From: a virus
Lineage: Duplodnaviria; Caudoviricetes
DNA: 64,000 nt
Reading direction: 5' to 3' (one strand)
Virus record (IMG/VR): IMGVR_UViG_3300025362_000477
Part shown: positions 1,459 through 53,978 of the stretch, piece after piece
Layout: each line of letters starts with the position of its first letter
How positions within the stretch are numbered: position 1 is the stretch's first letter
Program-made: the position numbers and the translations under genes
The notes under the pieces: generated by a model
Told to the model about the DNA's origin: nothing
The model's database searches: none
What the model saw: only the letters and a program-made list of their open reading frames with translations

Positions 1459-1653
1459 ATGAAAACTATTACAAAAACCATAGACGAACTTATTGAATCT
1501 AAAGATTCCCCATTACCATTAAAAGTAATTCCTAATAATATGGGAATTAATTTAAATAGTGTATCTACTATATCATGGAAACGATTAGAAAGTAGTAATC
1601 AATTAATGAATTTAACGATCAATTTCACCCCATCTAATGAGAATGTTCAATGA
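1459..1653 (+). CDS. hypothetical protein
   Basis: AAGGAG RBS; ATGA overlap with the next gene. Confidence 0.7.
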   Translation: MKTITKTIDELIESKDSPLPLKVIPNNMGINLNSVSTISWKRLESSNQLMNLTINFTPSNENVQ

Positions 1654-2586: not shown

Positions 2587-3765
2587 TTGATGGATGGAAT
2601 AAAGAATAAATTTAAAAGGAATATTATGCTCAAATGTAAAATATGCAATTCTGAATTTGATAAGAGTTTTCATTTATCTATTCATATCAAACAGAAACAC
2701 AATATACCAATTAAAGACTATTATGATAAATACTATAAAACAGAAGATGAAGGTTTTTGTAAAACATGCAGAAAAACAACCAAATTTCAATGTATGACTA
2801 ATGGATATATTACATATTGTTGTAATAGATGTGCTGCGATGGATAAAGATTTACAAAAAATAAAAAAATCAAAAATGAAAGTTCATTATAGAAATGGATC
2901 TATCCAAAAGAAAACCAAAGAAACATGTAATGAACGGTATGGTGTAGATAATCCATCTCAATCTAAAAAAATAAAAAATAAAAAGAAACAAACATTCCGA
3001 CAAAATTATGGAGTTGATAATTGTTTTCAACATCCAAAAATTCAAGAAAAATCAAAAGAAACATGTTTAGAAAAATATGGCGTAGAATATTCAGGATCAT
3101 CACCAATCGTACAGAAAAAGAAAAAACAAACATGTTTAAAAAAATATGGAGTAGAACATTATTCTGAAACAGATGAATACAAAGAGAAAATCAAACATAC
3201 ATGTAATGAACGGTATGGTGTAGATAACGTATTTGAATTAGATGAAATTAAAAAAAAATCCAAAGAATCATGTCTTAAAAAATATGGTACGGAATTTGCC
3301 TCACAATCAATAATAGTAAAAGATAAATCAAAAGAAACATGCATGTTGAAATTTGGAGTTGATAATCATGCTAAGACTTACATAGCAAGATTGAAATCTA
3401 GAAACATGCTGATTGAACGAATTAAAAAAGAAAATGGAAATAAGATAAATCCGATGAGAGGTAGTGGTGAAAAACCATGCTTTGATGAATTAGAAAAACA
3501 TATCCCATTTAAAATCGATAGAGATTTTACTAAAATTGGTTACTTCCCAGATGGATTCATTCATGAACTTAATTTAGTGATTGAATTTGATGAACCTGAA
3601 CACCAGTCTAGAGAATGGTATAAGGAACATGATATGAGGCGGAATTCTGATTTTGAAAAAATTGGTTATGAAACCCATAGAATTAAAAAAATCAATTGGG
3701 ATGATGATCCCAATAAATGTATAAAGAAATTCAAAAATATAATAACAAAATTAGACGGAGAATGA
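2587..3765 (+). CDS. free-standing putative homing endonuclease (same family as 258..1412)
   Basis: CKIC...H...H, many KYGVE/RYGVDN repeats, YFPDGFIHELNLVIEFDEPEH. Likely start MLKCK at 2626. Confidence 0.8.
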   Translation: MMDGIKNKFKRNIMLKCKICNSEFDKSFHLSIHIKQKHNIPIKDYYDKYYKTEDEGFCKTCRKTTKFQCMTNGYITYCCNRCAAMDKDLQKIKKSKMKVHYRNGSIQKKTKETCNERYGVDNPSQSKKIKNKKKQTFRQNYGVDNCFQHPKIQEKSKETCLEKYGVEYSGSSPIVQKKKKQTCLKKYGVEHYSETDEYKEKIKHTCNERYGVDNVFELDEIKKKSKESCLKKYGTEFASQSIIVKDKSKETCMLKFGVDNHAKTYIARLKSRNMLIERIKKENGNKINPMRGSGEKPCFDELEKHIPFKIDRDFTKIGYFPDGFIHELNLVIEFDEPEHQSREWYKEHDMRRNSDFEKIGYETHRIKKINWDDDPNKCIKKFKNIITKLDGE

Positions 3766-6737: not shown

Positions 6738-7283
6738 TTATTTTAACAGTTCAAGTTTAGACTTAACTTTACCAAGAAACTCAGAATTCTCCTCGGTTGC
6801 AGAAACAACCATCAAAACTCTAGTTAAGAACTTGATGTAATTTTCTACCGACATAGTAGCAGCTACTTTATCTATTAAAGATCTTAATATATTATTATCT
6901 CCGTACTTCAACATAGCCAGATATGCTTCATCACCATTTTTTCCCTGCGCAATTAAACAATGACCAATACCACACTGGGCACGAGCTAAAATACTATTCT
7001 CAGCATCAGGGTAATCTGCTATGACTTTATTATACGCAATAGCAGCTGCGGAATAATCTCGAGTATATTTATAGCACTGACCAATATCATACTGGGCACT
7101 AGCTAAAATATCCTTATTTGCTGTAGGGTAATCAGTAATCAACTTTTCAAATGCAACCACAGCTCCATTATAATTCTGATTCAAATACAGAGCTTCTGCG
7201 TTATCAAAATCATTAGTTATATCAGCATTTGCTAACATTGTCGTCATCATAATAACCATCGTTATTAATTTTTTCATTTTCAT
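6738..7283 (-). CDS. secreted TPR-repeat protein
   Basis: Signal peptide; AEALY..NY..A...FEKLI..YP and AQYDIGQCY tetratricopeptide pattern twice. Confidence 0.75.
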   Translation of the reverse strand: MKMKKLITMVIMMTTMLANADITNDFDNAEALYLNQNYNGAVVAFEKLITDYPTANKDILASAQYDIGQCYKYTRDYSAAAIAYNKVIADYPDAENSILARAQCGIGHCLIAQGKNGDEAYLAMLKYGDNNILRSLIDKVAATMSVENYIKFLTRVLMVVSATEENSEFLGKVKSKLELLK

Positions 7284-7329
7284 CTCTCCTCGTTTTTTAT
7301 TATAAAATGTTTAAACCATTTAAACATAA

Positions 7330-8937
7330 TTATTCACTTTTACGTTTCGGAACCCAATCTATTGTAACAGGATTCCATTTCTGTAAAGTACTATTGTGAT
7401 TCATTTCTGGACCTAAAGAATTATATCTTACAAATACAGCCCTTAAATTATGCTCATTCTGTTTCCATTGCCATGTCTCCCATGGAACACTGCACCCATC
7501 ATGAGATGGAAAATGCAAAACCGTTTCCACCACTGTATTTAGACTTATAAACTGCAAAGCTAAAGATTGAATATCTATAACACCCTCAGTTACATTCTGA
7601 TATAACATCCATTTACGAACATCTGATGCATTATAATCATCTACATAATATACTCTAGCATCCCTATCACCCAAAGTTTCTTGATGATTATCAACACCAT
7701 CCCATGGATCTCCCATAGTCTGATAATAATAAACTAGAGTATTAAGTGGCCAAGATTCCACAGAATTAGTGACAAATAATATCTTAAGTTCATAATCAGT
7801 CCAAGTACCAGGATAACCACCAGGATTTAAAGGAATTTCAATACGAATATAATATTCTAATGCGTTTGTATAAACACCTTCAATAAAACCATCTGGTCGT
7901 TCAATAGTGAAAATATCATTAGTTCGAACAGTATAAGTATTAATAAAAGCATCCAAAAATGAATTATTTATTAAATCCGGCCATGTATTTCTGAAAATAC
8001 CACCAAGAGTAATACCCCCATAAACAATCATATCATCAACTTGATAATCTAAAAATATCTGAGGTGGGTCAAACACAACAGGCTGTCCACCAAACTCACT
8101 TCCCCATCCTTGTACATGTGGATCAGTAATAACATTAGTTATTGGTGATGGTATTATATTATCCGATAATACTGGAGGTGTTCTTGCAAACTCTATACTA
8201 GTTAAATCCCAACAATTACTAACAAAAGAATTCCCAATGGATATAATTTCAGGTAACTCAACCCGAGTTAAATAATAACAACTACCAGCAAAAGAATCTC
8301 CAATTGATGTTGCTTTAGATAACCGAATATTAGTCATTGTATCACAATTATAAGCAAAGGAATCCCCGATTGATCTTGTTTGAGGTAACTCAACATCAAG
8401 TAAATAATAGCAATGACTGACAAATGAATCACCAATTGAAATTGCTTGTGGTAACTCGACACGAATCAAATGCCCACAATACCCAGCAAAAGAATCTCCA
8501 ATGGATGTTACTTGCGGTAACTCAATACTACTCAAATAATAACACTGAACAGCAAAAGAATCCCCAATTGATGCTACTTGTGGTAATTCGATACGAGTTA
8601 AAATATCACAATTATAGGCAAAAGAATCTCCAATTGATGTTAAATTTCTACTACCAACTATTACCTCTATATTATCATCATCATAAAATACATCATCTCC
8701 AACTGCAGTAATAGGAATGTTATAAAATTCATATGGAATTACAATATTAACATAACTCCCAGTATAACCCATAATAGTAGCTTTATCATTCAACACTGTG
8801 AAACTAAATACATTAGTCGGAGTAATAATGGTATCTGAATCATCATAATGGTATCGAATATCAGATATCTCTGAAGCATTACTTCTATTGAGTGTAATAA
8901 ATATAATAATACACATCAATATAATTCTCTTTATCAT
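7330..8937 (-). CDS. secreted BspA-type leucine-rich repeat (LRR_5) protein
   Basis: Signal peptide; about seven 22-aa units of L..IELPQV.SIGDSFA..C. Confidence 0.8.
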   Translation of the reverse strand: MIKRIILMCIIIFITLNRSNASEISDIRYHYDDSDTIITPTNVFSFTVLNDKATIMGYTGSYVNIVIPYEFYNIPITAVGDDVFYDDDNIEVIVGSRNLTSIGDSFAYNCDILTRIELPQVASIGDSFAVQCYYLSSIELPQVTSIGDSFAGYCGHLIRVELPQAISIGDSFVSHCYYLLDVELPQTRSIGDSFAYNCDTMTNIRLSKATSIGDSFAGSCYYLTRVELPEIISIGNSFVSNCWDLTSIEFARTPPVLSDNIIPSPITNVITDPHVQGWGSEFGGQPVVFDPPQIFLDYQVDDMIVYGGITLGGIFRNTWPDLINNSFLDAFINTYTVRTNDIFTIERPDGFIEGVYTNALEYYIRIEIPLNPGGYPGTWTDYELKILFVTNSVESWPLNTLVYYYQTMGDPWDGVDNHQETLGDRDARVYYVDDYNASDVRKWMLYQNVTEGVIDIQSLALQFISLNTVVETVLHFPSHDGCSVPWETWQWKQNEHNLRAVFVRYNSLGPEMNHNSTLQKWNPVTIDWVPKRKSE

Positions 8938-22725: not shown

Positions 22726-23961
22726 TTATGAATTAACTGACATATTAGGAGCAATGATAACAGATTCTATCAATTCAGATATAGTTTTATCAAAGATAGT
22801 TTTAAACTTCTCATCATTGTGATATAATGGATAAGCATCTTTTGTCCGAAATTTCTTTTCATCATAACCTAATATATAATTCCATGCCCCTGATTTAATC
22901 CTTTTATTATCAACTAAAAATTGATAGCTAGTCCAGAAGTTTGATACACCTCTATTAAAATCTACCATTAAAGTTATTGGTACATGAGGTCTAAAAAACT
23001 TATTTTTTACAAATGATGCTTCAATCTTAACACCATTGAATCCATATTGCTCAAACTTTAGATCTCCCCTATTCCTAAGAAACAATAAATGAAATGCATT
23101 AAATTTAACAGCCTGTCCACCAGGAATATCTTTATTTCCGAGTTTCTGCAAATCATTCGGGGCACTGAACATTCCCATATCAAGTTTTTCTCTAAGTTGA
23201 TTAACCGCAATTATAGAGATATTTGAACTTCTCATCTTTGGAAGGAATCTAGGGAATAGTTGAGATAACACTCGAGCTTTTAACCCAACTGTTTTATTAA
23301 TATCAACATCCTCTGATTCAATACCCTTTTTAGTATCAGTATTTGCTATAGAATCCCATGCAATAACAGAGGGGCATTCAACTATCTTTCTCTCTTGCTT
23401 AAATGCAGAAATAGCTTCAACTGTCTGAAAGATACTCTCAACAGAAACATTATCATAAGGAACTAATTTTGGATGATTCACACCCATCTGTTCCAATCTC
23501 TCAGTTGTCATACCATTTTCAGAATCATGGTAAGTAGCGAGCATTTTCCCACCATATTTTCTCTGACCAGCAGCAATCGTTTGCCCTAATAAAGAACTCT
23601 TGAATGTTCCTGGATTTCCCACAATCATAGTAAATGTACCAACACCAAAACCACCACCAGCAATAGCATCTAAAAGATCTATCCCAGTTGGAAATCTTTC
23701 AATACGAGAATTATCATTTTTAATATCAATTTTCTCTTCAATAAACTCAGATAGATCAGCTGTTAGTTGAAATATCTGCTCTTCTTCAGTCGAAACTTTT
23801 GCAACCTCAATTGCAGCTTCTGCCTTTTCTTTATCCTCTTCAGTAATAACAACTGAATTAACAACTTGTGCTACAACTTGTGCGGCAACAACATCTTGTT
23901 CTTTTAATTTTGCAGCAGTCAATTTAACGCCACTATCCCCAAGTACTGGATTATCACTCAT
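22726..23961 (-). CDS. RecA/UvsX-like recombinase
   Basis: FPTGIDLLD, GNPGTFKS Walker A, DSE, IAWDSIA Walker B, AVNQLR, PGGQAVKF, KNK motifs. Confidence 0.88.
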   Translation of the reverse strand: MSDNPVLGDSGVKLTAAKLKEQDVVAAQVVAQVVNSVVITEEDKEKAEAAIEVAKVSTEEEQIFQLTADLSEFIEEKIDIKNDNSRIERFPTGIDLLDAIAGGGFGVGTFTMIVGNPGTFKSSLLGQTIAAGQRKYGGKMLATYHDSENGMTTERLEQMGVNHPKLVPYDNVSVESIFQTVEAISAFKQERKIVECPSVIAWDSIANTDTKKGIESEDVDINKTVGLKARVLSQLFPRFLPKMRSSNISIIAVNQLREKLDMGMFSAPNDLQKLGNKDIPGGQAVKFNAFHLLFLRNRGDLKFEQYGFNGVKIEASFVKNKFFRPHVPITLMVDFNRGVSNFWTSYQFLVDNKRIKSGAWNYILGYDEKKFRTKDAYPLYHNDEKFKTIFDKTISELIESVIIAPNMSVNS

Positions 23962-26398: not shown

Positions 26399-26665
26399 CT
26401 ATTGATTTTGTATAATGTTAATAATTTTCACAGAATTTAAATTTTTTAAAAGAGTTGAAGTATCAACTATCTTATCCAATGAATCATTTAAAATAACTGG
26501 TAATTGTTGACTTGTGTTCAATTTAGTTAATGCCCGTTTAATTTTCAAAATTTTGACATCTCCAAATGAACCTTTTTTCAGTTCAACATAAGGAATATCA
26601 GGTAAAAATTTTTTAGCTATTTTACATGATTTACAATTTTCGATACCAACGATAATCATCATCAA
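26399..26665 (-). CDS. glutaredoxin-like protein
   Basis: IVGIENCKSC (CxxC) and QQLPVIL; near the RNR. Confidence 0.6.
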   Translation of the reverse strand: MMMIIVGIENCKSCKIAKKFLPDIPYVELKKGSFGDVKILKIKRALTKLNTSQQLPVILNDSLDKIVDTSTLLKNLNSVKIINIIQNQ

Positions 26666-27714
26666 CCACCATATTCTGAAAGAGCTTTAACTAATAAACC
26701 TTCAGCAACTGCTGTTAAGGGATCATCAGCCATACGAACATGTTTCACATCAAATGCAAAATCCTCTTTATATTCTGTTAATACCTCATTAAATAAAGGC
26801 AGGAATCCAGTAGCAAGTGAAGTTCCACCACTAACAATAATAGAAAGAGATTCAGGTAAATCAATATTATCAGTAACTTGATTTAATTTCACTTTAATTT
26901 GATCGAGTGAATAACGAATCATCTCTCTATAATAATAAACAATCGCTTCCCTAGTACGTCTTTCTTTCTTACCACCAATAGTAAAATTCTGGAGGTCAGT
27001 ATTACGTTCTTTAATAGCAGTAATTCTATTAGGTACAGTCCCCATTGAATTAGCTACATTTTCATCAATCCAATCTCCAGAACGAGCAACACTAAATGTT
27101 ACAACTGGAACGCTCTTATACGCGAGACACACATTGACCATACCCGCGCCAAATGAAAATGATAATCCAGTAAATTGATCATCTTGACAATGACTGTATA
27201 TAATAGCCATAGCTTCATTGAATGATTGTGCTCGATATCCGAGATCAGAAAATATTCTATGAAATACACCTTCATGATATGTTATATTATTTTTAGAATC
27301 AATTGATTCAGCTGGTACACTATATATACAATGACCATCATTTGTTGTACCAACTAATTTCTTTATAATCAACTCTAAAATATCAAGACTATCAATCTCA
27401 CTTGGAGATATTAACCCTTTTGACATAGGTCTCTTTACACTCTTCCCAAATATATTGCTAAAATTAAAAGCATCATTTCCAATAATATAAACGGAATCAT
27501 CAGTCTCAACATAGTCTATATTTGATAGCTCTGCCATGGGTACTTGACTTTTATCGAGAGGTAAATACATATTTCTAATAGATGAAATTTCAGCAGATTT
27601 ACCTTTAGGTTCAGCCAGTACTATATTCATAGTCCCACAATCAACCGCGATAATACGAGGTGGTTTCGGAGCTGTTAGATCTACAACTTCTGATTTTGTT
27701 TTCTTTTCAGGCAT
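26662..27714 (-). CDS. actin-fold ATPase (MreB/MamK/ParM-like)
   Basis: Phosphate-1 VDCGTMN, PMSKGLI, FNEAMA connect-1, SFGAGMVN phosphate-2, SGDWID, VSGGTS adenosine motif, DPLTAVAEG connect-2. Confidence 0.85.
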   Translation of the reverse strand: MPEKKTKSEVVDLTAPKPPRIIAVDCGTMNIVLAEPKGKSAEISSIRNMYLPLDKSQVPMAELSNIDYVETDDSVYIIGNDAFNFSNIFGKSVKRPMSKGLISPSEIDSLDILELIIKKLVGTTNDGHCIYSVPAESIDSKNNITYHEGVFHRIFSDLGYRAQSFNEAMAIIYSHCQDDQFTGLSFSFGAGMVNVCLAYKSVPVVTFSVARSGDWIDENVANSMGTVPNRITAIKERNTDLQNFTIGGKKERRTREAIVYYYREMIRYSLDQIKVKLNQVTDNIDLPESLSIIVSGGTSLATGFLPLFNEVLTEYKEDFAFDVKHVRMADDPLTAVAEGLLVKALSEYGG

Positions 27715-28624
27715 TTATATTCTCCAAGGTAGATTTAAATTCACTTATTACTAAATTTTTATTTTGTTCCCATTTATTCTTTTTAATTCTTATACACTTG
27801 AATCCATATTTCATATAATCCTCATCTTTCTGAATATCATAAGGTTTATATGTTTCATAATTATCAATAAAATGATGACGTTCATCAAATTCTATTACTA
27901 ATTTCAATTCTTCAATATACCCATCAGGAAAATATCCAATCATTCGTGGATTTCGAATTATTTTATATTGAGTATGTTTTTGTATCTCATTCAAACACGG
28001 ACGTTCCATATCACCAATATTTGGCATCAATGGTTCACCATTTAATTTTTGCATTTCAACTCTATTGATTGCTATATTTCTTAATTTCAAACGAACAGAA
28101 TATATTTGACTTGGATTTTCTACTCCATATTTATTCATGCATGTTTTCTTCTTTTTCTCTTTGATATATTTAGATTTATTAGGATTATCAACACCATATT
28201 TTTTTAAATATGAATATTTTTTTTTCTGTTTTATTTTTTCTAATTGATTTGGATTTTCTACTCCATATCTAAACATGCAAGTATCTTTTTGTTTCTGCCG
28301 AATCTCAATATTCTCACTTGGTGATCCACACCCAAATCTATCATAACAAGTTATTTTAAATTTATTCCGAACTATCAATGAATTTGAAGAACATTTATTA
28401 CTACAATATATTCGATAACCACTTACTATATTTTGATAGTATGTAGGATCCCCACATACAAGACATATATCTTCATTTTCTTTTTTAAGATATTTATCAT
28501 AATATTCTTTAGATGATAAATGATGTTTTTGTCTAAAATGAGAAACTAAACCTTTCACTAATTTAAATTCTTTACTGCAAATTTTACATTTAAGATCCAT
28601 TCTTCTCTGCCATAGTAGCACCAA
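27707..28624 (-). CDS. free-standing putative homing endonuclease (family of 258..1412)
   Basis: CKIC...H...H, KYGVENP repeats, YFPDGYIEELKLVIEFDERHH. Likely start 28600. Confidence 0.8.
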   Translation of the reverse strand: MVLLWQRRMDLKCKICSKEFKLVKGLVSHFRQKHHLSSKEYYDKYLKKENEDICLVCGDPTYYQNIVSGYRIYCSNKCSSNSLIVRNKFKITCYDRFGCGSPSENIEIRQKQKDTCMFRYGVENPNQLEKIKQKKKYSYLKKYGVDNPNKSKYIKEKKKKTCMNKYGVENPSQIYSVRLKLRNIAINRVEMQKLNGEPLMPNIGDMERPCLNEIQKHTQYKIIRNPRMIGYFPDGYIEELKLVIEFDERHHFIDNYETYKPYDIQKDEDYMKYGFKCIRIKKNKWEQNKNLVISEFKSTLENINA

Positions 28625-32559: not shown

Positions 32560-32943
32560 TCATGGTTGTTTCTGGAATTTAGCTAATTTTTGAGCTGCTG
32601 CTGATAAATTCGTTTCTTTTTTTCTTTTTTCGATAGTAGATACATTCATAGTCATACCATCTATATTGACAGTAGGTATGAATGGTCTCGATGATAGTTC
32701 AGCCACCTCTTTTTTCTCACCATTTTCCCGATAAGTCGGATGGTGATCTTTTAATTCTTTAAGGGCGTTAGTCATATTACTCATCGCAGATCTCATTTCA
32801 AAGGTCAAAGAATCAATTTTTTCATTTAAATCCTTCTGTTCCTTTCTGAGAGAAATATTTTTTTCAAGTAATGAAGACTGTTCTCTCATATTCATTAAGA
32901 ACCTCTTTGAATTTCTTTGTATCCACAGTAAGCTATTCCACAT
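32560..32943 (-). CDS. hypothetical coiled-coil protein
   Basis: Co-oriented ORF; start uncertain. Confidence 0.5.
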   Translation of the reverse strand: MWNSLLWIQRNSKRFLMNMREQSSLLEKNISLRKEQKDLNEKIDSLTFEMRSAMSNMTNALKELKDHHPTYRENGEKKEVAELSSRPFIPTVNIDGMTMNVSTIEKRKKETNLSAAAQKLAKFQKQP

Positions 32944-33650
32944 GCGTCACTTATATCCTCTGTAAAACCTGTTTGAGCTGCAATATCGTTTTTAACATTA
33001 TTCATTTTTTTATCAAATGCCTTTTGTGATAACTTCATATTTTCTTTTTCTAATTTAATAGATATATCTAATTCTTTAATTCGCTCTCTTGTAGCTAAAC
33101 CATTGAAAACATCTAATTTATTTCTCTTTCTATTTAATGCAGCTTTACACTTATTGATTTCAACTCTACTAGATTTTATATATTGTTTCAAATCATCGAT
33201 TCGTTGCAAATCTATATTAACTTGAACTTTGATATTATCAAAATTACCAGTTATGGGAATATTATAATGTTTAATTACAGCCAATTGAGTTTGCCATTTT
33301 TTTGCATTACCCATTAAACCTTCAAATGAATGACATTTCCAATAACATGGTTCATATAATTTAACTCTCTCCTGTAATATGGTAAATGTAGTATTTATTG
33401 CAACTCCATTCAATCTAGCCAGAAATGCTAAAGTCTTAGCACCTGAAATTCCTAATATAACATCCTCTATAAAACAATAATCGGGATGCAACCGAGTCAC
33501 TAAATTTTTTAACTCCAAATGAAAATAATGTAACTTCTGTGGTAAAGACATACCTGATATTAATCGAATAGTACCGCGATCAATCAACACATCATCTTCT
33601 AAATATACCCACCCAGTAGCCGTAGCAATATCCAATCCTAAATATTTCAT
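32895..33650 (-). CDS. RuvC-like Holliday junction resolvase with an internal coiled-coil insertion
   Basis: YLGLDIATATGW, FIEDV, EDISDACGIA acidic catalytic pattern. Confidence 0.78.
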   Translation of the reverse strand: MKYLGLDIATATGWVYLEDDVLIDRGTIRLISGMSLPQKLHYFHLELKNLVTRLHPDYCFIEDVILGISGAKTLAFLARLNGVAINTTFTILQERVKLYEPCYWKCHSFEGLMGNAKKWQTQLAVIKHYNIPITGNFDNIKVQVNIDLQRIDDLKQYIKSSRVEINKCKAALNRKRNKLDVFNGLATRERIKELDISIKLEKENMKLSQKAFDKKMNNVKNDIAAQTGFTEDISDACGIAYCGYKEIQRGS

Positions 33651-33663
33651 AAACTATTTCCTA

Positions 33664-34128
33664 TTAATGAACGTCCAATACTTTTAAACAAAAAGATGGA
33701 ATTACACCATCAGAACATTCAATAGCAGTCCGAGGTAAAGAATTTAAATCATCCTCATTAGCAATCATAGATGATAATTTTTTAGAGTATTTAACTAATA
33801 TCTTTTCAATATCAAACTCATCTAATGTACCCTTTTCCCATTCAAAATTAACCGGTTTAATAATAACCTTCTGATCTTTAATCTTTGATAATTTAGATGC
33901 AGATATTTTAACAGGAGTATGACTTTCCAAATATCCAGAATATTTATTTGGAGGTATCCTAGTAAAAAATGCAGTTATAGATCCTTCTTCTCCACATGAA
34001 AGACCATTTTCCTTAATATCTTCTATTTCATCATTTGATATATAAGCATAAAGATATGGTTTTATTATAAGCATATCAATATTTGGATCACCTAGTACAA
34101 TTTCTGAAATTATTTTATATCCGTTCAT
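33664..34128 (-). CDS. hypothetical protein
   Basis: Co-oriented ORF with RBS. Confidence 0.65.
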   Translation of the reverse strand: MNGYKIISEIVLGDPNIDMLIIKPYLYAYISNDEIEDIKENGLSCGEEGSITAFFTRIPPNKYSGYLESHTPVKISASKLSKIKDQKVIIKPVNFEWEKGTLDEFDIEKILVKYSKKLSSMIANEDDLNSLPRTAIECSDGVIPSFCLKVLDVH

Positions 34129-35137
34129 TATTAATTACCTCTTTAAATTTTTGTATAATAGGTTCTGAATCAGATAACCATTCAGATTCTTTGATTCTAA
34201 AAACTATATAACCTAAATCATTATAAATTTCATTCTTTTTTTTATCATGTAATATGGCCCATGGTTTTCTATGATATGATTCATCAATTTCAATTATTAA
34301 ATCTAAATGTTCAACTAAACCATCAGGATAAAATCCACCTATAATCTGATTTCTCAAAATATTATTTTGCACAATAAACTGTAACTGCTCTATTATGATG
34401 TCTTCATTCAATCCTTTACCAGGAAATCCAAATATGTTAAATCTTGCGAAATTTTTACGAGCAATATCTTTACATTTATCTGTTTTAGAATAATTATCAA
34501 CACCATATTTTTTAAGACATGATTTTTCAATTTTCAATCTAATAATATCTGAACCAAATCCAACTCCACCATATTTTTTTACACATGATAATTTTTGTTT
34601 TAATTTAACCTCTTCTGATTGATTCGGACTGGATGTACCATAATTTTCAAGTGATGTTTTTTTACTTTTATTCTGAATTATTTTAGATTGTAACGGACAC
34701 TCTACACCCCAATTCTTTATAGATGTCTTAATTTTTTTATGTTTTACAATAATTGATTGAGATGGGTTGTCTACTCCATATCGTTTATTACATGTTATTC
34801 TATTTTTTAACAAACATTCTTTGGATCTACATTGACATTTTCTACTACAGTAATCATAATACCCATACCGATAACCTTTAAAATTAGTCAAAGATCCGCA
34901 CGTCAAACATATTCCATCGTTTTTTGTTTTTATAAATTTATCATAATAATCTTTCATTCTAAATTTATGACATTGAAATAAATGTGCCGCAAATCCCCTA
35001 AGATCATTTATTTCATATTCATCACATATTTTACATTTATCCATGATCAAACACCACATTAGGAATAGCTGATCTTTCAAATTTCTCGATAGTTCTATCA
35101 TAAATCTCTTTCCCATCTTGATATAGCATATCACCAT
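34115..35137 (-). CDS. free-standing putative homing endonuclease (family of 258..1412)
   Basis: CKIC...H...H, YGVDNPS repeats, FYPDGLVEHLDLIIEIDESYH. Likely start 35044. Confidence 0.8.
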   Translation of the reverse strand: MVICYIKMGKRFMIELSRNLKDQLFLMWCLIMDKCKICDEYEINDLRGFAAHLFQCHKFRMKDYYDKFIKTKNDGICLTCGSLTNFKGYRYGYYDYCSRKCQCRSKECLLKNRITCNKRYGVDNPSQSIIVKHKKIKTSIKNWGVECPLQSKIIQNKSKKTSLENYGTSSPNQSEEVKLKQKLSCVKKYGGVGFGSDIIRLKIEKSCLKKYGVDNYSKTDKCKDIARKNFARFNIFGFPGKGLNEDIIIEQLQFIVQNNILRNQIIGGFYPDGLVEHLDLIIEIDESYHRKPWAILHDKKKNEIYNDLGYIVFRIKESEWLSDSEPIIQKFKEVINNERI

Positions 35138-43342: not shown

Positions 43343-44084
43343 ACATCTCCCACCATTTTTTAATGTAAGCTATAGTATTACATGATCTAATTGTTGGATT
43401 AATTGGATTCCTAAATTCACGTTCATATTTATTTATAATTGAATGATTTGCATCTGATATAAATGGGACAAATATACCAATACTAAACAATACTGCACAT
43501 TTTCTAAAGCATGCAGAACATTTCATACATTCATCAGTAATATATGAATATCTATCACCATCCATAAAATAATGATATGATTGTTTAGGTGTGGGATTAA
43601 AACAAGAAAAGGTATCTTTTAACAAATTCATCTTAAGTGCCGGATGATTACATGAATACCAACTGATCATATCAGATTTATAACAATTATAAAAGGGAGA
43701 ATCGATCTCACAATAACTCTTATTGACATTTGTTAATAGACGTGATACATCTCTACATACTTCAAATTTATTGTCACCAATCCTATCTGATAGTGACCCA
43801 CCCAACCATACTTTATCATAACCCAATGAATTCGCATATATAGTCATTAAAAGATTTCTATTTGGAATATGAGCATCATCGCATTCAATAGTTTGAAAAT
43901 TAAGATCTTCACAGAATCTCATATTACTTATATTTAAAGATTTAATCTTTTCAATCTCATTCTTACAATATCGACCCTTATGATTGAAATATAAACAATC
44001 AAATTGATGTCCATTATCTAAAAGATACTGTCTAGCGATAAAACTATCCAATCCACTGCTATAAAGTAAACATTCTTTTCTCAT
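43326..44084 (-). CDS. queC: 7-cyano-7-deazaguanine synthase-like PP-loop ATPase
   Basis: LLYSSGLDS, HIPNRNLL, K..MI, SCFNP...CMKCSACFRK zinc site. Confidence 0.82.
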   Translation of the reverse strand: MRKECLLYSSGLDSFIARQYLLDNGHQFDCLYFNHKGRYCKNEIEKIKSLNISNMRFCEDLNFQTIECDDAHIPNRNLLMTIYANSLGYDKVWLGGSLSDRIGDNKFEVCRDVSRLLTNVNKSYCEIDSPFYNCYKSDMISWYSCNHPALKMNLLKDTFSCFNPTPKQSYHYFMDGDRYSYITDECMKCSACFRKCAVLFSIGIFVPFISDANHSIINKYEREFRNPINPTIRSCNTIAYIKKWWEMCDGES

Positions 44085-45129
44085 TTATAATCTCCTTAAA
44101 AATATCTATTATATTATTTCTATTTTGTTCCCAGTCTCGTTTTTTGATTCTAAAAATTTGCAAACCTTCACTTAGATAATCATGATCCTTTCGAATATCT
44201 TTATCTATATAAATTTCCCAACCATCTAAAAAATGTTGACTCTCATCAAATTCAATAACTAATTTTAACTCTTCAATATATCCATCTGGAAAATATCCAA
44301 TTATTTTATGATTTCTTTGAATTTTTAAATCAGTATATTTTTGTAATTCGTTTAAACATTGTCTTTCATCATGACCTATTCGTGGACATAATGGTTCACC
44401 ATTAAGTTTTTGAGCCTCAATAAAAGAAATAGCAGAATTCCTACATAACATTCGACCTTCATCAGTCTTAGTCCAATGATCAACTCTATAACGTAATCTA
44501 GATGATTCTTTTTTCTTTTCTTTCACATAAGGTATTTGGGAAACATTATTCACACCATAAATTATATTACATGTATTTTTAGCTTTTAATCTAGATTTAA
44601 CATAATCTTTCCTTAATGAACTATCTCTTAATTTTTTCTTTACTATTGATGATTTTGAAACATTATCAACTCCATATTTTTGAATGACAGTTTTTTTTAT
44701 TTTTAATTGAATTTCCGCATTTCCCAGTGCAGATTTACAACCAAATCTTTTAATACATGTAATATATCCATTTTGTTTAATTTGATCATTCTGGTATGGC
44801 CGATTAACTCCATATCTATCTTGAAAAGTTTTGATCTGTTTAGACATTATCTCTTTATTTTTCAAATGATGTGTTTCACCATATCTTTGAATGTTAGTAG
44901 CTATATGTTTGTCTTTTACATCTTGAGAATTAGCAGAACATTTACGACTACAATATTTTGAATATCCACCAAGTCCATTAAATGTAGTATCGTTCCCACA
45001 TTGAATGCATTTTCCATCACCCGGTTTCAATAAATATTGATCATAATAATCTTTAAGATGAATTTTATGAGTTCTAATAAGATGAGTTCCTAGAGCCTTA
45101 TATTCTTTACCACACAGTTCACATTTCAT
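44059..45129 (-). CDS. free-standing putative homing endonuclease (family of 258..1412)
   Basis: CELC...H...H, YGVDNVS repeats, YFPDGYIEELKLVIEFDESQH. Confidence 0.8.
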   Translation of the reverse strand: MKCELCGKEYKALGTHLIRTHKIHLKDYYDQYLLKPGDGKCIQCGNDTTFNGLGGYSKYCSRKCSANSQDVKDKHIATNIQRYGETHHLKNKEIMSKQIKTFQDRYGVNRPYQNDQIKQNGYITCIKRFGCKSALGNAEIQLKIKKTVIQKYGVDNVSKSSIVKKKLRDSSLRKDYVKSRLKAKNTCNIIYGVNNVSQIPYVKEKKKESSRLRYRVDHWTKTDEGRMLCRNSAISFIEAQKLNGEPLCPRIGHDERQCLNELQKYTDLKIQRNHKIIGYFPDGYIEELKLVIEFDESQHFLDGWEIYIDKDIRKDHDYLSEGLQIFRIKKRDWEQNRNNIIDIFKEIINEKRMFTL

Positions 45130-45205: not shown

Positions 45206-45604
45206 TCACAACTGTAGAGATTTGATATATTTTACAGCATCATCTACATCAGAAACAATCATATGTACATGAGCTTCAATCCATAAATCTCCTTGACATA
45301 TTTCATTAGGGTTTATAACAATAACAGGAATAGTATTTTGTAAGAATGCATGATATATTTCCATAGCTGTTCCAAAACTAGGTCTTTCAATATAAGCAAT
45401 TACTACATCACTTGAATTGATTAATGCTTTATCTCTAGGAACCATAGTTAAATCACATTCATTTGAAGGATCGGGATCTATAAACTCATAACGACCATCT
45501 AAATCATCTACAAAATTATCACACAATCTAGCTTTCCATGTATTAGCAGGTTCTTCTTCATATATAGTACCTGCTAAATAAACTCTTATCTTTTTATCAT
45601 TCAT
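45206..45604 (-). CDS. nucleoside 2-deoxyribosyltransferase-like protein
   Basis: VYLAGTI, FIDP, RDKALINSSDVVIAY, SFGTAMEI. Confidence 0.8.
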   Translation of the reverse strand: MNDKKIRVYLAGTIYEEEPANTWKARLCDNFVDDLDGRYEFIDPDPSNECDLTMVPRDKALINSSDVVIAYIERPSFGTAMEIYHAFLQNTIPVIVINPNEICQGDLWIEAHVHMIVSDVDDAVKYIKSLQL

Positions 45605-45903
45605 AATTCAATCCTTTGATTCAGCTCATTCAATGATGAGTTTGCATTATGATATCTCTGCCACCATAACATCATCGCTCTATTCGCAATGTCATGGAGG
45701 TGCAAGCAATCTTGATCAAGGTGCTGTATAAAGGCATCAGCCTTTAAATCTTTAGCGATATGATCGGCATAAAAAGGGTCATCCCACCCTCGATATCCCT
45801 GCGCGGCCTTTTCGTATAACCTAAATCGCATATCTTCTGTGAAAAGCGATAATGCTTTGTCAATCTCTCGACACTCTTTTGTATATGTTTTTTGTCTTGG
45901 CAT
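45601..45903 (-). CDS. cassette gene: small all-alpha phage protein (possible NTP-PPase-related)
   Basis: F.EDM..RL.EKA..GY.GWD...HDIANRAMMLW; reads through the relic core ATTATGA at 45646. Confidence 0.6.
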   Translation of the reverse strand: MPRQKTYTKECREIDKALSLFTEDMRFRLYEKAAQGYRGWDDPFYADHIAKDLKADAFIQHLDQDCLHLHDIANRAMMLWWQRYHNANSSLNELNQRIEL

Positions 45904-45925
45904 CTCTTTATTCTCCTGAACTTAA

Positions 45926-46004
45926 TCATAACAATTGAATGGAGAACTACCTCCAATCCGCTCGTTCCTCGCTCCTTTACGGAGTCTCATTCATGGCGTT
46001 CAGT
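45926..46004 (+). other. attC-1 (79 bp, complete)
   Basis: R'' TCATAAC-5nt-L'' AATGGAGA ... L' TCTCATT-6nt-R' GTTCAGT; left arm AAT[G]GAGA[A]CT[A]CC pairs with GGAGTCTCATT. Confidence 0.88.
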
Positions 46005-46231
46005 GTACTGAATGCAATCTGCACGAGCGATGGGTCCGCATCGCGGAACCGTGACGCCATCGTACCTTTCAGCCTTATTGTGACAACAAGCCTGCCGTGG
46101 TCTTCGTCCTCGAATTGAACCACATCACCAATGACGGGACGCACCGAACAAGATGCTGGACAAGTACCCAAAGGGGCCCTGTTGATCTCATTCATAGCCT
46201 CTCCGCTTGTACACTCATTATACTTTTTCAT
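45977..46231 (-). CDS. cassette gene, hypothetical
   Basis: Start MKKYNE at 46231 lies inside the attC-2 loop; ends LNAMNETP* inside attC-1. Confidence 0.65.
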   Translation of the reverse strand: MKKYNECTSGEAMNEINRAPLGTCPASCSVRPVIGDVVQFEDEDHGRLVVTIRLKGTMASRFRDADPSLVQIAFSTLNAMNETP

Positions 46232-46269
46232 AAATTCCCCCTTTGGGACTGTCAGCATTAGCGTTATAT
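46143..46269 (+). other. attC-2 (127 bp, complete)
   Basis: R'' ACCGAAC-5nt-L'' GCTGGACA ... L' TGTCAGC-6nt-R' GTTATAT; GCT[G]GACA[A]GT[A]CCCAAAGGGG pairs with CCCCTTTGGGACTGTCAGC. Confidence 0.9.
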
Positions 46270-46465
46270 GATTATAAAATCCTTGAACTCATTGATTATA
46301 TAATCAGTTTGGCTCGTTCCTTTAATATCTTGCAAATCATCAATCACAAAACTGATTGTTTTTGTGCACCTTTGCAACATGTATTTCAATCGTATTGCGG
46401 ACTAACGCGATATGAATCGAGTCAGCGGTTAATGATTCTTTTAATTTCAAAATTTCTGTTAACAT
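46264..46465 (-). pseudogene. cassette gene with a 1-nt frameshift (not in ORF track)
   Basis: GGAG RBS + ATG at 46465 (MLTEILKLKES...) to the TAA inside the attC-2 core spans 202 nt = 67 codons + 1. Confidence 0.55.
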
Positions 46466-46483
46466 TCCTGCTCCCTCATTTTA

Positions 46484-46541
46484 AGATAACAAAAACATGC
46501 ACCGTACGGCGTACTGCCGGCATGCGATGTTGGTGTTATGT
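46484..46541 (+). other. attC-3 (58 bp, right arm degenerate)
   Basis: R'' AGATAAC-5nt-L'' CATGCACC GTACGGCGTAC ... GTTATGT; left arm shared with attC-6. Confidence 0.75.
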
Positions 46542-46768
46542 TATTTAATCTCAATTCGTTTGCCACAAAACGGGCAGAATTTCCAATCCTGTTCTTTTGG
46601 CCCGAAATCCTCAAACCAATAATTAGCACCATAGCTTGTTTGCCAGTCGTTGGATTCTGGTTGATTTTCCCAGACCCAACAATCTACTGAGCAAGTACCC
46701 GAATGGGCTGTCAGAGGGCAATCGTCACGTCTTATCATATCACCTTTATCATTGTATGTTATTCGCAT
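46541..46768 (-). CDS. cassette gene: small zinc-ribbon-type phage protein
   Basis: WQTSYG...WKFCPFCGKRI; start lies inside the attC-4 loop after GGAG. Confidence 0.7.
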   Translation of the reverse strand: MRITYNDKGDMIRRDDCPLTAHSGTCSVDCWVWENQPESNDWQTSYGANYWFEDFGPKEQDWKFCPFCGKRIEIK

Positions 46769-46813
46769 TTCAACTCCTTGTCCCCTTTGGGACTGTCAGC
46801 ATTAGTGTTGGGG
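46674..46813 (+). other. attC-4 (140 bp, related to attC-2)
   Basis: R'' ACCCAAC-5nt-ACTGAGCA AGTACCCGAATGGG ... CCCCTTTGGGAC TGTCAGC-6nt-R' GTTGGGG. Confidence 0.8.
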
Positions 46814-47034
46814 AGAATTGGTGTCCGCCCGCACGCTCTCCAAAATGCATCCAGTTGTTCCAGCGTTCGGAACTTCATTTCTCCGTAGGTGTTATCTGTT
46901 TCTTCGACGCACTCGATTACTGCATTAAGTGTGCCCCATAAACGGCAAGCTATTGTGCCTGATCCGCAAACGCCTCTAGTTGATTTTAAATCTTCCTTGG
47001 CATTTAATATTCGCAACTTTAATCTATCTTTCAT
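46759..47034 (-). CDS. cassette gene, hypothetical
   Basis: GGAG RBS; C-terminus PNTNADSPKGDKELKCE is read through the attC-4 right arm. Confidence 0.65.
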   Translation of the reverse strand: MKDRLKLRILNAKEDLKSTRGVCGSGTIACRLWGTLNAVIECVEETDNTYGEMKFRTLEQLDAFWRACGRTPILPNTNADSPKGDKELKCE

Positions 47035-47120
47035 AATATTCTCCTTTTGGGGCTGTTTTTGGTTGTTTGTTTTCGTTGCTCATAATTCATTCTCTCCGGT
47101 TGTGCTGGCTCCCGTTGTCC

Positions 47121-47140
47121 GGTGAGCCAGAGCGTTATGA
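47121..47140 (+). other. attC-5, right half only
   Basis: L' GGTGAGC-CAGAGC-R' GTTATGA; no matching left arm found. Confidence 0.7.
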
Positions 47141-47341
47141 ATTTTTCAACCCTCTAATTTTACCAGCAATCTCTCGCAGTTCATCCGATTTAACTAAAAA
47201 ATCACCTTCAACGTAAGCCATACTCTCTTTAATGGCTTTACGTTGCTCGTTTTCGTATTTCATGCCTTGAATATCGCAACATACCGCTGTGCCCTCAATT
47301 GCGAGTGCTTCAAATTCTAAAGCTCTTTCTTCTCTACTCAT
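47135..47341 (-). CDS. cassette gene, hypothetical helical protein
   Basis: AAGGAG RBS and MSREERA start at 47341; stop TAA lies inside the attC-5 core. Confidence 0.7.
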   Translation of the reverse strand: MSREERALEFEALAIEGTAVCCDIQGMKYENEQRKAIKESMAYVEGDFLVKSDELREIAGKIRGLKNS

Positions 47342-47361
47342 ATTGTTTCTCCTTAATTTTA

Positions 47362-47426
47362 AGATAACAAGCACATGCACATGCACCGTACGGCGTACCA
47401 CAGACAGGTGATGCTAGGCGTTGGGT
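47362..47426 (+). other. attC-6 (65 bp, with a 6-bp duplication in the left arm)
   Basis: R'' AGATAAC-AAGCA-(CATGCA)-CATGCACC ... L' GGTGATG-CTAGGC-R' GTTGGGT. Confidence 0.85.
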
Positions 47427-47698
47427 TTAATAACATCATCCAGCATCCACCTTGCAAGCGCGACTACAGAGCATCTCTCACAATGCGATACGGCTTGGCA
47501 GTCGCACGGTCTTGGCTCAAAGCGCGTTAGCAAAAATTCCGCTGTTCGCTTGGCTGCTATGTGCCAGTGGTCTGGATGAAACTGGCACATAGGGGTACAC
47601 TTTCTTTCGCATCCAGCGCAATGCTCTGAATGCCTACCCAACAAGTCAGTCGAGCATACCTTTTGGGGCGTTTTCGGTTGTTCGTTTTCTTTACTCAT
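47414..47698 (-). CDS. cassette gene: Cys/His-rich putative zinc-binding protein
   Basis: HCAGCERKCTPMC...CDCQAVSHCERC; N-terminus reads through attC-7, C-terminus PNA* lies in attC-6. Confidence 0.7.
   Translation of the reverse strand: MSKENEQPKTPQKVCSTDLLGRHSEHCAGCERKCTPMCQFHPDHWHIAAKRTAEFLLTRFEPRPCDCQAVSHCERCSVVALARWMLDDVIKPNA
47636..47655 (+). other. attC-7, left half only
   Basis: R'' ACCCAAC-AAGTC-L'' AGTCGAGC; R'' is the exact complement of the attC-6 core GTTGGGT. Confidence 0.7.
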
Positions 47699-48492
47699 AA
47701 TCTAAACGCTTCACTCGATAAAAAATTTGTTGCATTTTTTCCTTCTGAAAATTCATATATTGGGATATTATACTTAATACATATTGGTGTAAGAAGGATA
47801 TTGGGGAACGTAAATAACTTCTTACTACTTGTAATATAATTAACGATCATTTGATTATCTTTTGTTATAACATGGTTGATATTAGTTAATTTCTTCAACC
47901 TTAATACATCAGAATAAGGCAGTATCTTATTAACATCTCCTATTAAACATATTATATAATCATTAAATCGTTTTGATATCTGTCCAATACATTTGAAATC
48001 TATTCTATTTCCGTTATTACTGTTTTCTAAATTAATAGTTATGAAATCTCTATGAAGTTTAATATCTTTTGTTTTATCTATATCAACAGATATTATTTCT
48101 TTAACTTCAATCTCCTCTAATATAGTTGGTGCTTTTTCCTTTGGTGTTGGTATAACAGCTGGCCGATCTATTTTTTCATCTTCTGTTCTATTATCAGACT
48201 TAATATAATTTTCAATACATGCACCATTATGTATATCTTTACCACATCGTTCACAAAGATTTTTCTTCTTTCTATAACTTATAATAGTTTCTTTTTTTCT
48301 TTCTCTTTTTAGATCCAATTGCACTTCTGGAGGTTCTGGTATCCCTCTCATATCAGACTTAATATAATTTTCAATACATTCACCTTCATGGATATCTTTA
48401 CCACATCGTTTACATAATCCTTTACGTTTTCGATGACCAATAATCACAGCTTTTCTAAGTCTTATTTTCTGTTCAGCTTTTGTTTCGCTCAT
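47695..48492 (-). CDS. hypothetical protein with a duplicated CxxC...H...C motif
   Basis: LCKRCGKDIHEGECIENYIKSD and LCERCGKDIHNGACIENYIKSD. Confidence 0.7.
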   Translation of the reverse strand: MSETKAEQKIRLRKAVIIGHRKRKGLCKRCGKDIHEGECIENYIKSDMRGIPEPPEVQLDLKRERKKETIISYRKKKNLCERCGKDIHNGACIENYIKSDNRTEDEKIDRPAVIPTPKEKAPTILEEIEVKEIISVDIDKTKDIKLHRDFITINLENSNNGNRIDFKCIGQISKRFNDYIICLIGDVNKILPYSDVLRLKKLTNINHVITKDNQMIVNYITSSKKLFTFPNILLTPICIKYNIPIYEFSEGKNATNFLSSEAFRL

Positions 48493-49364: not shown

Positions 49365-49649
49365 ATGAGTGATGAAACACAGACATATTATGAGTTTATT
49401 GAACGCATAAAGAATAAATTTGGTTCTTTTGAATTAGATGCACAGGCTGGGGCAGATAATAAATCAGCAGCACTACGAGCTCGAAAACTTTCAATGGAGC
49501 TGCGTCGGGATCTACAGGATTTTCGTAAGGTATCCGTTGATAATGATCGGGTTAATACAAAGCATCGTCCTGAGACTGTTGCGGTAGAAGTTAGTGATGC
49601 ACCGGCAGCAGGTGAGCCAGTCGCTATGCCTGATGAAGCAGTAGTATAA
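49365..49649 (+). CDS. histone H1-like (Hc1-family) small basic protein
   Basis: IK..F.SFE.DA....NKSAALRARKLSMEL...LQDFRKVS pattern. Confidence 0.7.
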   Translation: MSDETQTYYEFIERIKNKFGSFELDAQAGADNKSAALRARKLSMELRRDLQDFRKVSVDNDRVNTKHRPETVAVEVSDAPAAGEPVAMPDEAVV

Positions 49650-52989: not shown

Positions 52990-53151
52990 ATGAAAAATAA
53001 TCAAATAACTATTGATATTAATCCAGACATTCGATATGCAGCTAAATTATTAGCTAAAAAATTTGATGTATCTTTAAAATATATTATTCGTATAGCATTA
53101 ATTGATATTTTGAAAAAACATAATTGTGATATTCCCGTGGAAGAATTATGA
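52990..53151 (+). CDS. 53-aa ribbon-helix-helix-like protein (not in ORF track)
   Basis: MKNNQITIDINPDIRYAAKLLAKKFDVSLKYIIRIALIDILKK...; AAGGA RBS; ATGA overlap with the next gene. Confidence 0.7.
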   Translation: MKNNQITIDINPDIRYAAKLLAKKFDVSLKYIIRIALIDILKKHNCDIPVEEL

Positions 53152-53978
53152 AATTATGTGAATGCGGTTGTGGTAAAGAAGTTAATTCCAAATCTGCTCG
53201 ATTTATATCTGGACATAATATTAAAAAAGGACATAAATGGAAACCAAGAACTGATGAACATGCTAAAAAAATTATAAATACTAGAGTTGAAAATAAAAGA
53301 TTATTTGATTTAAATATTCCGTTTTCATTATGTAAATGTGGTTGTGGGAAACGAGTTTCAAAAAGAACTAATGTTTATATTGAAGGTCATCATCCTAGAA
53401 TCGCAGGGTTTAAAGATCATAAACATAGTCAAAAAACTAAAGACTTATTTTCAAAAATTTATAAAAGCCAAGAATTTAAAGATAAAGTATTTAAAACTAT
53501 GATTGATCGTTATGGAGTTAAACATGCTTTTCAAAATCCAAAATTTATTAAAAAAGCTAATAAGACTTATTTTGAAAAAACAGGATATCATAATCCATCA
53601 AAAAATCCTTTAGAGATCGCAAAAGCTTTAAAGACTAGAAGAAAAACTAATTTAGAACGAGGTATTTGGATACCAGATGATCAATTACCTATGTTTCAAC
53701 TTTACTATAGAAGAGTGTGGCATTATACCAATATAGCAGCGAAGTTAAAATATGATGATGAAAAATTATCAAAAAGAAAACTATGTGGTGTTAAAAATGG
53801 TTTACAATTAGATCATAAGTTTTCTATTCGAAAAGGATATGAAAATAATATTTTACCGCATATAATAGGTAGTCAATACAATATCAATTTAATTTCATGG
53901 GAAGATAATAGATTAAAAAATATCAGTTGTTCTATAACAAAAGAAGAACTTTTTGAACACGTTAACAAGGAAAACTAA
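53148..53978 (+). CDS. putative homing endonuclease (CxCGCG + NUMOD3-like + HNH-like)
   Basis: Two CxCGCG...GH units, KHSQKTK, LQLDHKFS...NLISWEDNRLK. Confidence 0.75.
   Translation: MKLCECGCGKEVNSKSARFISGHNIKKGHKWKPRTDEHAKKIINTRVENKRLFDLNIPFSLCKCGCGKRVSKRTNVYIEGHHPRIAGFKDHKHSQKTKDLFSKIYKSQEFKDKVFKTMIDRYGVKHAFQNPKFIKKANKTYFEKTGYHNPSKNPLEIAKALKTRRKTNLERGIWIPDDQLPMFQLYYRRVWHYTNIAAKLKYDDEKLSKRKLCGVKNGLQLDHKFSIRKGYENNILPHIIGSQYNINLISWEDNRLKNISCSITKEELFEHVNKEN

Follow-up and report, generated by a model that had tools for sequence, protein, structure and literature searches.

Integron-type attC recombination sites have been found in phages without an accompanying integrase gene. In a screen of 10,705 phage genomes, Qi et al. 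2023 (Front Microbiol, PMC9892861) identified 17 integrase-less attC clusters, some of them in virulent phages, and obtained IntI1-mediated attC × attI1 recombination for five of the six phage sites tested. Their arrays include those of the 132-kb Pseudoalteromonas phage PH101 and of another myovirus. Here we analyze a comparable locus in the IMG/VR record IMGVR_UViG_3300025362_000477, a stretch of 64,000 nucleotides from a virus (Duplodnaviria; Caudoviricetes) that we refer to as the window. It contains an inserted island of 2.1 kb (45601..47698, minus strand) with seven small co-directional genes, which we call A to G, and a set of attC-like sites. We consider it likely that this island is an integron-type gene-cassette array, horizontally acquired and without an integrase in the window, that is, a CALIN (cluster of attC sites lacking integrase). 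An earlier sequence-only reading had proposed attC-type sites separating small accessory genes, and the site blueprint, a covariance model built from other contigs (R2), stem covariation and a rule of core complementarity all bear this out. The same reading knew of no such array in large myoviruses, a novelty that does not hold: arrays without integrase in virulent phages had already been published in 2023 (Qi et al., PMC9892861), and that of the window is a further, partly decayed example.

Like the island, the array of Pseudoalteromonas phage PH101/H101 (NC_029094) lies in a large virulent phage (132 kb) and has a few attC sites between small hypothetical genes and no integrase. Its genes are likewise antisense to its sites, with attC at 76529–76585 and 77931–77987 on the plus strand and gp133–gp136 on the minus strand in our scan with the covariance model R1 (see below). 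The window array differs from it in having more cassettes (six or seven), which are very short (265–350 bp), and in scores of 9–12 bits with R1 as against 29.6–30.5 bits for the PH101 sites. Moreover, two PH101 sites are among the five that IntI1 recombined (Qi et al. 2023, PMC9892861), whereas those of the window are thermodynamically weak and known from sequence alone. Tetrasphaera phage TJE1 (NC_019930; Qi et al. 2023) also resembles the window array, as a virulent phage with an attC cluster and no integrase in its early region. There the cluster adjoins methyltransferase-type accessory genes, as in the sister contig L003 discussed below. However, the TJE1 attC sites (244–293 and 1462–1519, plus strand) have the textbook orientation, the same as that of the genes, while the window genes are antisense.

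Bacterial attC sites, of both the class 1 aadA type and the Vibrio superintegron, share with the window sites the AAC/GTT cores, the 5- and 6-nt spacers, the 8- and 7-nt L boxes and the index of the extrahelical base, and one arm has as many as three bulges in VCR2 and attCoxa2 (Nivina et al. 2016, PMC5027507), as in window sites. In bacterial integrons, too, the first bases of a cassette are complementary to its own inner core, and a few site types are common to many cassettes. Unlike these, the window array has neither intI nor attI nor a Pc promoter, its gene polarity is inverted, its hairpins are far less stable, and its sites overlap coding sequence and translation starts. A further described system is that of the promoter/stem-loop (PeSL) modules of T4-type phages, in which an early promoter is joined to a terminator-like stem-loop and which recombine by homology (Arbiol et al. 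2010, PMC2839356; Comeau et al. 2014, PMC4122927). Their likeness to the window lies in short conserved motifs beside small novel genes, in variable regions of large myoviruses, for which modular shuffling has been proposed. The window sites differ from them in having no promoter or terminator signal above shuffles and in their attC geometry.

The island as an insertion

Upstream of the island lies a conserved phage gene of 265 amino acids (aa; 47695..48492, minus strand), with orthologues in the related contigs L007–L010, L021 and L022, and downstream a conserved, nucleoside 2-deoxyribosyltransferase-like gene of 132 aa (45206..45604, minus strand), with orthologues in relatives as well. Both outer junctions read ATTATGA, a stop/start overlap, the ATGA of gene A being shared with the stop of the 265-aa gene and that of gene G with the start of the 132-aa gene. 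In five relatives (L007–L010 and L021; DNA polymerase 63–66% identical) the orthologues of the flanking genes are adjacent and overlapping, with no island, the counterpart of the 132-aa gene (127/142 aa) being joined directly to that of the 265-aa gene; in the junction alignment, homology to the relatives ends at the ATGA on both island sides. Because the flanking genes are joined directly in these five relatives, the island is an insertion. The comparison of related phages that the sequence-only reading had suggested for cassette order and content has thus revealed the insertion, and assemblies of the same phage gave no variation of the array. The GC contrast noted in the same reading is also real, with 0.434 in 45601–47698 against 0.305 in the remaining window. 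On these sequence features the island is foreign to the phage lineage and appears to be horizontally acquired.

Island DNA has no match among 50,697 phage records, and exact-word scans of viral contigs for two site cores returned nothing. The single match in species genomes, to a Nitrososphaeraceae assembly, was rejected as a chance 20-mer. We likewise rejected the idea that a target-site duplication has copied the 3' end of the 265-aa gene to the right junction, as the alignment was no better than those of shuffles (388/500). A more distant relative, L022 (polymerase 59% identical), has an unrelated 239-aa gene (7212–7931) with a faint radical-SAM match exactly at the island junction, so that this junction seems to be a recurrent insertion spot.

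Geometry of the attC-like sites

The island contains six sites of 51–140 nt within 1.8 kb, all on the plus strand. Plus-strand GTT cores stand at 45998, 46263, 46535, 46807, 47134 and 47420, spaced by 265, 272, 272, 327 and 286 bp, so that the sites and core spacing claimed from the sequence are where they had been placed. Site 1 (45926..46004) has an L box of 7/7, bulge index 3 and three bulges (G, A and A), and its inner core is perfectly complementary to c0 (45646..45652, plus strand), a degenerate core that marks the predicted start of the gene G cassette and reads ATTATGA where GTTATGA is expected. Site 2 (46143..46269) has a 21-bp stem with three bulges as in site 1 and a long central loop in which, on the opposite strand, gene F has its ribosome-binding site and start codon. 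Site 3 (46484..46541), of the same sequence type as site 5, folds end to end as a hairpin and fails the strict L box of the blueprint AAC-5-8...7-6-GTT, in keeping with the degenerate arm remarked on earlier. Site 4 (46674..46813) is a decayed homologue of site 2 (right arm 96% identical, left arm 77%) within which gene C ends and gene D starts. A half site (47087..47140, plus strand) comprises a 10-bp hairpin (fold z -3.5) followed by a GCGTTATGA core and has no inner AAC core. Site 5 (47362..47426), with an L box of 6/7 and bulge index 3, is homologous to sites of the sister contigs L003 and L005, where they follow gene A homologues. Site 6 (47636..47686) is a weak attC-like remnant, read through as an N-terminal extension of gene A.

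A strict blueprint scanner (AAC-5-L''(8)...L'(7)-6-GTT, one bulge allowed) returned sites 1 and 2 at 7/7 and sites 4 and 5 at 6/7 on the plus strand of the island, and zero sites on its minus strand; in dinucleotide shuffles the mean was 0.39 matches and 0/1000 reached five. As a positive control, the same scanner recovered 17 genuine class-1 attC sites from plasmid integron arrays, with identical spacers. Bulge index 3, seen in three window sites, is shared by 15 of these 17, in which the bulged top-strand base is C or G. Sites 1 and 2 had been described as unrelated in sequence with the same positions unpaired, and they do have a common pattern, 6 bp-G-3 bp-A-2 bp-A, built from different stem letters with compensatory changes. 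When the four best window sites are aligned on a common structure, the AAC and GTT triplets are invariant, the L helix is 92% paired and 9 of its 14 pairs change on both sides; controls with slid partner columns pair at 30–45%.

Repeats within the island are in part those of the sites: 46238–46265 is 96% identical to 46782–46809 and 46143–46177 is 77% identical to 46674–46708, while 46455–46529 resembles 47333–47413, sites 3 and 5 sharing a core at 46496–46514 and 47380–47398. A further pair, 47046–47086 and 47661–47701, is 83% identical. A 13-mer, TCTCATTCATRGC, also occurs three times (45985–45997, 46186–46198 and 47224–47236) and gives rise to AMNE peptide motifs in gene F, both in its N-terminal region and at its C-terminus; an older attC arm may have left this trace within coding sequence.

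Covariance models and sister arrays

The covariance model R1 was trained only on 12 genuine class-1 attC sites. It recovered every attC in 79 kb of plasmid DNA with no other match at E ≤ 1, and in 143 kb of phage relatives it found nothing at E ≤ 10 except in L004, a near-copy of L003. With default filters R1 had no match in the window; with filters off, over 3.5 kb, its top three matches were sites 5, 3 and 1, followed by 47636–47686, all on the plus strand. In the viral contigs L003 and L005, which are of 54–57% GC and carry gene A homologues, R1 matched three sites each, and in L026, which carries a gene G homologue, one, at 13.6–27 bits and on the strand opposite the genes.

The second model, R2, was built only from these seven non-window sister sites. 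Over the whole 64-kb window, both strands, it gave exactly four matches at 23.9–27.2 bits, which are site 5 (27.2 bits), site 2 (26.2 bits), site 1 (26.1 bits; E 1.3e-4 in 64 kb) and site 3 (23.9 bits). Site 6 scores 11.6 bits and site 4 9.0 bits. R2 had zero matches in 86 kb of control phage DNA, and it found four more sites in L026 and others in the contigs L030 and L031. The window sites thus belong to a family whose members occur in unrelated contigs of 44–57% GC, with none in 140 kb of the phage's relatives.

The sister array of L003 (1855–3208; also in L002 and L004) lies in a phage-like early region. Its genes, named from a reading of the sequence rather than from family matches, are a small, putatively Lar-like CxxC zinc-ribbon gene, a 93-aa gene, the gene A homologue and a gene with a start resembling a cytosine-5 DNA methyltransferase motif, and the region is divergent from a PD-(D/E)XK/DUF2800 exonuclease gene. 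Methyltransferases beside phage attC clusters were noted by Qi et al. 2023 (PMC9892861).

Core complementarity and breakpoints

In integron arrays the last four bases of the outer core belong to the next cassette. The inner core of a site should therefore match the core of the previous site. In the window it does so at 18 of 24 positions, as against 11 of 24 for the site's own core (permutation P=0.012), and the match to the previous core is 7/8 in L005 and 6/8 in L003.

The breakpoints of similarity fall at the predicted cores, as the sequence-only reading had required of real sites. Similarity to the gene G homologue of L030 (~85–90%) begins at the inner core, spans the gene and breaks off at CATAA|. 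At this break, which corresponds to c0, the AAC core of L030 is intact, and a site of the 3/5 type comes next. Contigs of another salt-lake sequencing run (X4) break at 45647, 45929 and 46000. This run contains a 72-nt identical copy of 45929–46000 (site 1) with foreign flanks and a 2-kb contig bearing two copies of the left arm of site 2, and its joint sequence at 45647 led to L030 and L031. We disregarded a 46455-to-48061 joint, in which the 21-nt sides lie within AT-rich sequence.

The cassette genes and their polarity

Between each pair of cores lies one short minus-strand open reading frame (ORF) with a Shine-Dalgarno sequence, as the earlier reading had it of one short gene per interval. 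Gene A (47414..47698) codes for a Cys/His-rich protein of 94 aa with homologues 64–70% identical in the 54–57% GC contigs. Its frame is the true one, since third-position changes dominate in the alignment of homologues and it is the best-scoring tblastx frame. The first 22 residues, encoded by the remnant site 6, are missing from the homologues. Gene B (47135..47341; 68 aa) has no family match, and its TAA stop overlaps a core. Ahead of gene C (46759..47034; 91 aa) stands a remnant of the leader of gene A. This 19-codon ORF (MSNENKQPKTAPKGEYYER, 47025–47084) repeats the 13 codons with which gene A begins (MSKENEQPKTPQK, 47660–47698), overlaps the start of gene C and provides its Shine-Dalgarno sequence. 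This leader repeat looks like a portable translation-start module.

Gene D (46541..46768; 75 aa) encodes a Trp-rich zinc-ribbon protein with numerous unnamed homologues, its conserved domain beginning near residue 20–30, past the part encoded within site 4. Gene E (46264..46465), consisting of a 41-aa ORF (46340–46465) and a second frame to 46264, is probably frameshifted, and its TAA stop overlaps a core. Gene F (45977..46231; 84 aa) has its last 7 codons beyond the core of site 1, and gene G (45601..45903; 100 aa), a member of a viral family with a DIANRAMMLWW motif, has its last 15 codons outside the cassette. The cargo received no Pfam or PHROG assignment beyond weak zinc-ribbon hints. An Atlas search with gene G returned only viral hypothetical clusters and weak MazG/PRA-PH leads, and its AlphaFold model, of three helices (predicted local distance difference test, pLDDT, 79), has no significant match in the PDB.

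In the bottom strand that is recombined, the extrahelical bases lie on the arm opposite its AAC (Nivina et al. 2016, PMC5027507), and it is the coding strand of the island that carries this bottom-strand geometry. Genes are antisense to the sites in L003, L005 and L026 as well. Co-orientation of genes with the attC top strand is usual in integrons but does not define them. With at least two co-oriented sites within 3–4 kb and no integrase among 20 ORFs searched in the 64-kb window, the array falls under the definition of a CALIN.

Contrary evidence and alternative explanations

Several observations weigh against an integron-type array. The R1 scores in the window (11.8 bits for site 5, 9.5 for site 3, 9.1 for site 1 and 7.3 for site 6) are not significant (E 0.1–0.5 for the top sites, over 3.5 kb) and fall below the 20-bit cut-off of Qi et al. 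2023 (PMC9892861). R2 carries sequence homology, two of its training sites being homologues of sites 3 and 5 and the loop of site 1 having a 14-mer in common with a site of L005. The core consensus GTTRRRY is present only at 47420 and RYYYAAC only at 46674 and 47636, although in the genuine attC sites strict conservation is likewise limited to the core triplets. When the bottom strands (the window minus strand) were folded as DNA and scored against shuffles, the six window sites had a mean z of -0.95 (range +0.58 to -3.14) as against -4.65 for the 17 genuine attC sites, and a hairpin dG of -3.7 to -16 as against -12 to -36; sister-array sites average a fold z of -1.63. The folding check proposed in the sequence-only reading thus gave a divided answer, in that sites 2 and 3 clearly outfold shuffles, and sites 4, 5 and 6 fold no better than these, with z ~0 at site 4. 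All seven island genes are antisense to the site polarity, and genes C, F and G cross the predicted cassette boundaries, as gene A does by two codons. No tyrosine recombinase (PF00589) is present among 20 window ORFs of 236–429 aa, in a search that covered these 64 kb of a 221-kb genome; this agrees with the earlier remark that no integrase is in view. The outer ends of the island lie at the ATTATGA overlaps, away from G|TT cores, and no variation is seen among assemblies of the island.

If the likeness to attC were superficial, the sites could be PeSL-like promoter/stem-loop modules of T4-type phages, shuffled by homologous recombination, as has been documented for such modules (PMC2839356, PMC4122927). 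The window phage is a distant T4-like virus, the island sits at a variable junction at which L022 has a different gene, and boundary sequences of 28–48 nt are repeated beside unrelated genes, all as PeSL shuffling would have it. Nevertheless, promoter-like sites number 11 against 11.8 expected and terminator-like sites 2 against 1.8, with none at the sites on the coding strand, and neither the AAC/GTT cores with their fixed 5/6 spacers nor the bulge index and the complementarity to the previous core are features of PeSL. The occurrence of the sites in unrelated contigs of higher GC, and not in the phage's own relatives, also speaks against this explanation, which we hold to be unlikely. The stems could alternatively act in RNA, as mRNA hairpins that, for example, mask ribosome-binding sites or serve in RNase processing, with conservation reflecting that role. 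The transcribed strand does have the bulged-arm geometry, genes F and D have their Shine-Dalgarno sequence and start codon within a long-range stem of sites 2 and 4, respectively, and stem covariation fits an RNA hairpin as well as a DNA one. There is, however, no Rfam match, and an RNA role leaves the AAC/GTT cores, the previous-core complementarity, the breakpoints at cores and the R1 matches unexplained, so that as the full explanation it seems to us quite improbable. As a secondary use, the masking of the ribosome-binding sites of genes F and D is possible and compatible with a role in DNA recombination.

Eye-picking of AAC...GTT pairs with short complementary boxes in a GC-richer insert would be the simplest account. 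The strict blueprint recurs at 0.46 matches per kb per strand in the AT-rich rest of the window, so that about one per strand is expected by chance in the island, and the individual R1 E-values and weak fold z-scores given above would be no surprise if chance were at work. Against this, the four distinct scanner sites lie on one strand, with none on the other and all at gene borders, R2 finds only island sites in 128 kb of searched strand, the covariation and the previous-core rule hold, and homologues of the sites exist in other contigs. The clustering on one strand, the covariation and the homologues elsewhere exclude chance in our judgment, and we give it hardly any credence. An integron-type cassette array is therefore the explanation that we prefer.

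Origin and present state of the array

In the history that we infer for the enzyme, the donor, the entry route and the present inactivity of the array, six or seven small genes would each once have been bounded by a folded attC-type site. An IntI-like tyrosine recombinase that cuts at G|TT would have put the cassettes together elsewhere, in a pool common to other, higher-GC, salt-lake phage-like genomes. The 2.1-kb block would then have entered the phage between two translationally coupled genes; with its outer ends at ATTATGA and not at cores, it probably did so by ordinary short-homology recombination. In its present position, the island genes would be read through from the flanking phage operon, giving an mRNA strand with bottom-strand geometry, and parts of the sites may now serve as ribosome-binding sites, start codons and protein ends.

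The sequence-only reading went further in suggesting that the phage may shuffle the array, for which we find no support. Three further assemblies of the same phage are 99.99–100% identical, two of them spanning the whole island and the third covering it up to 46733, although in such assembled contigs rare circular or deleted forms would not show; several sites are degenerate, and the hairpins are weak. Site 4 is decayed, c0 has A for G, one site is without its inner half and gene E looks frameshifted. The array in the window phage looks fixed and partly decayed rather than actively shuffled; it is probably no longer mobile, and is most likely a fossil.

The phage carrying the island

The window genes include those for a family-B DNA polymerase, a ribonucleotide reductase and a baseplate hub, and the polymerase is ~24–29% identical to those of cultured phages, mostly T4-like. 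Judged by these genes, the phage is a large, distant T4-like virus. A saline-lake sample from the JGI (Joint Genome Institute) contains the identical DNA polymerase protein, on a contig of 220,894 bp, and gene A, on one of 37.7 kb; the sequencing runs that contain the window stretch are all salt-lake metagenomes.

Besides the island, the 64 kb hold six paralogous DUF7487/DUF559 homing-endonuclease-like genes (258–1412, 2587–3765, 27707–28624, 34115–35137, 44059–45129 and 53148–53978). The copy at 44059–45129 lies between the 132-aa gene and a QueC-like gene and is missing from L007–L010, L021 and L022, and so is a second recent insertion adjoining the island. A 350-aa protein (26662–27714) matches the Pfam family Volactin (PF25216) over its full length (E 5e-72) and is a phage-encoded actin-like protein. 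The window also encodes a RecA/UvsX-like recombinase (22726–23961), a protein with a weak RuvC-like match (32895–33650) and, upstream of the polymerase, an Hc1 histone-like protein (49365–49649). The RecA/UvsX-like and RuvC-like functions could be mediators of short-homology insertion.

Implications for phage-borne cassettes

The island adds a well-delimited cassette array, with a clean empty-site comparison, in a very large virulent phage, and common site types and genes tie it to sister arrays in salt-lake viral contigs. It lends support to the published view of phages as carriers and movers of integron cassettes. The antisense polarity of genes and sites, seen in the window, in the sister arrays and in PH101, is a feature not remarked on by Qi et al. 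2023; if general, it would bear on how phage cassettes are made and expressed. A bolder proposal, which we put forward tentatively and regard as rather less than probable, is that salt-lake phages of unrelated lineages share a pool of inverted cassettes of ~270–350 bp with bottom-strand geometry on the coding strand, in which the attC site doubles as a translation-start module, AAC and GTT cores are both exchange points, and genes and sites are shuffled independently. Were this so, the inverted-cassette pool would represent an integron variant adapted to phages, not a set of stray bacterial cassettes.

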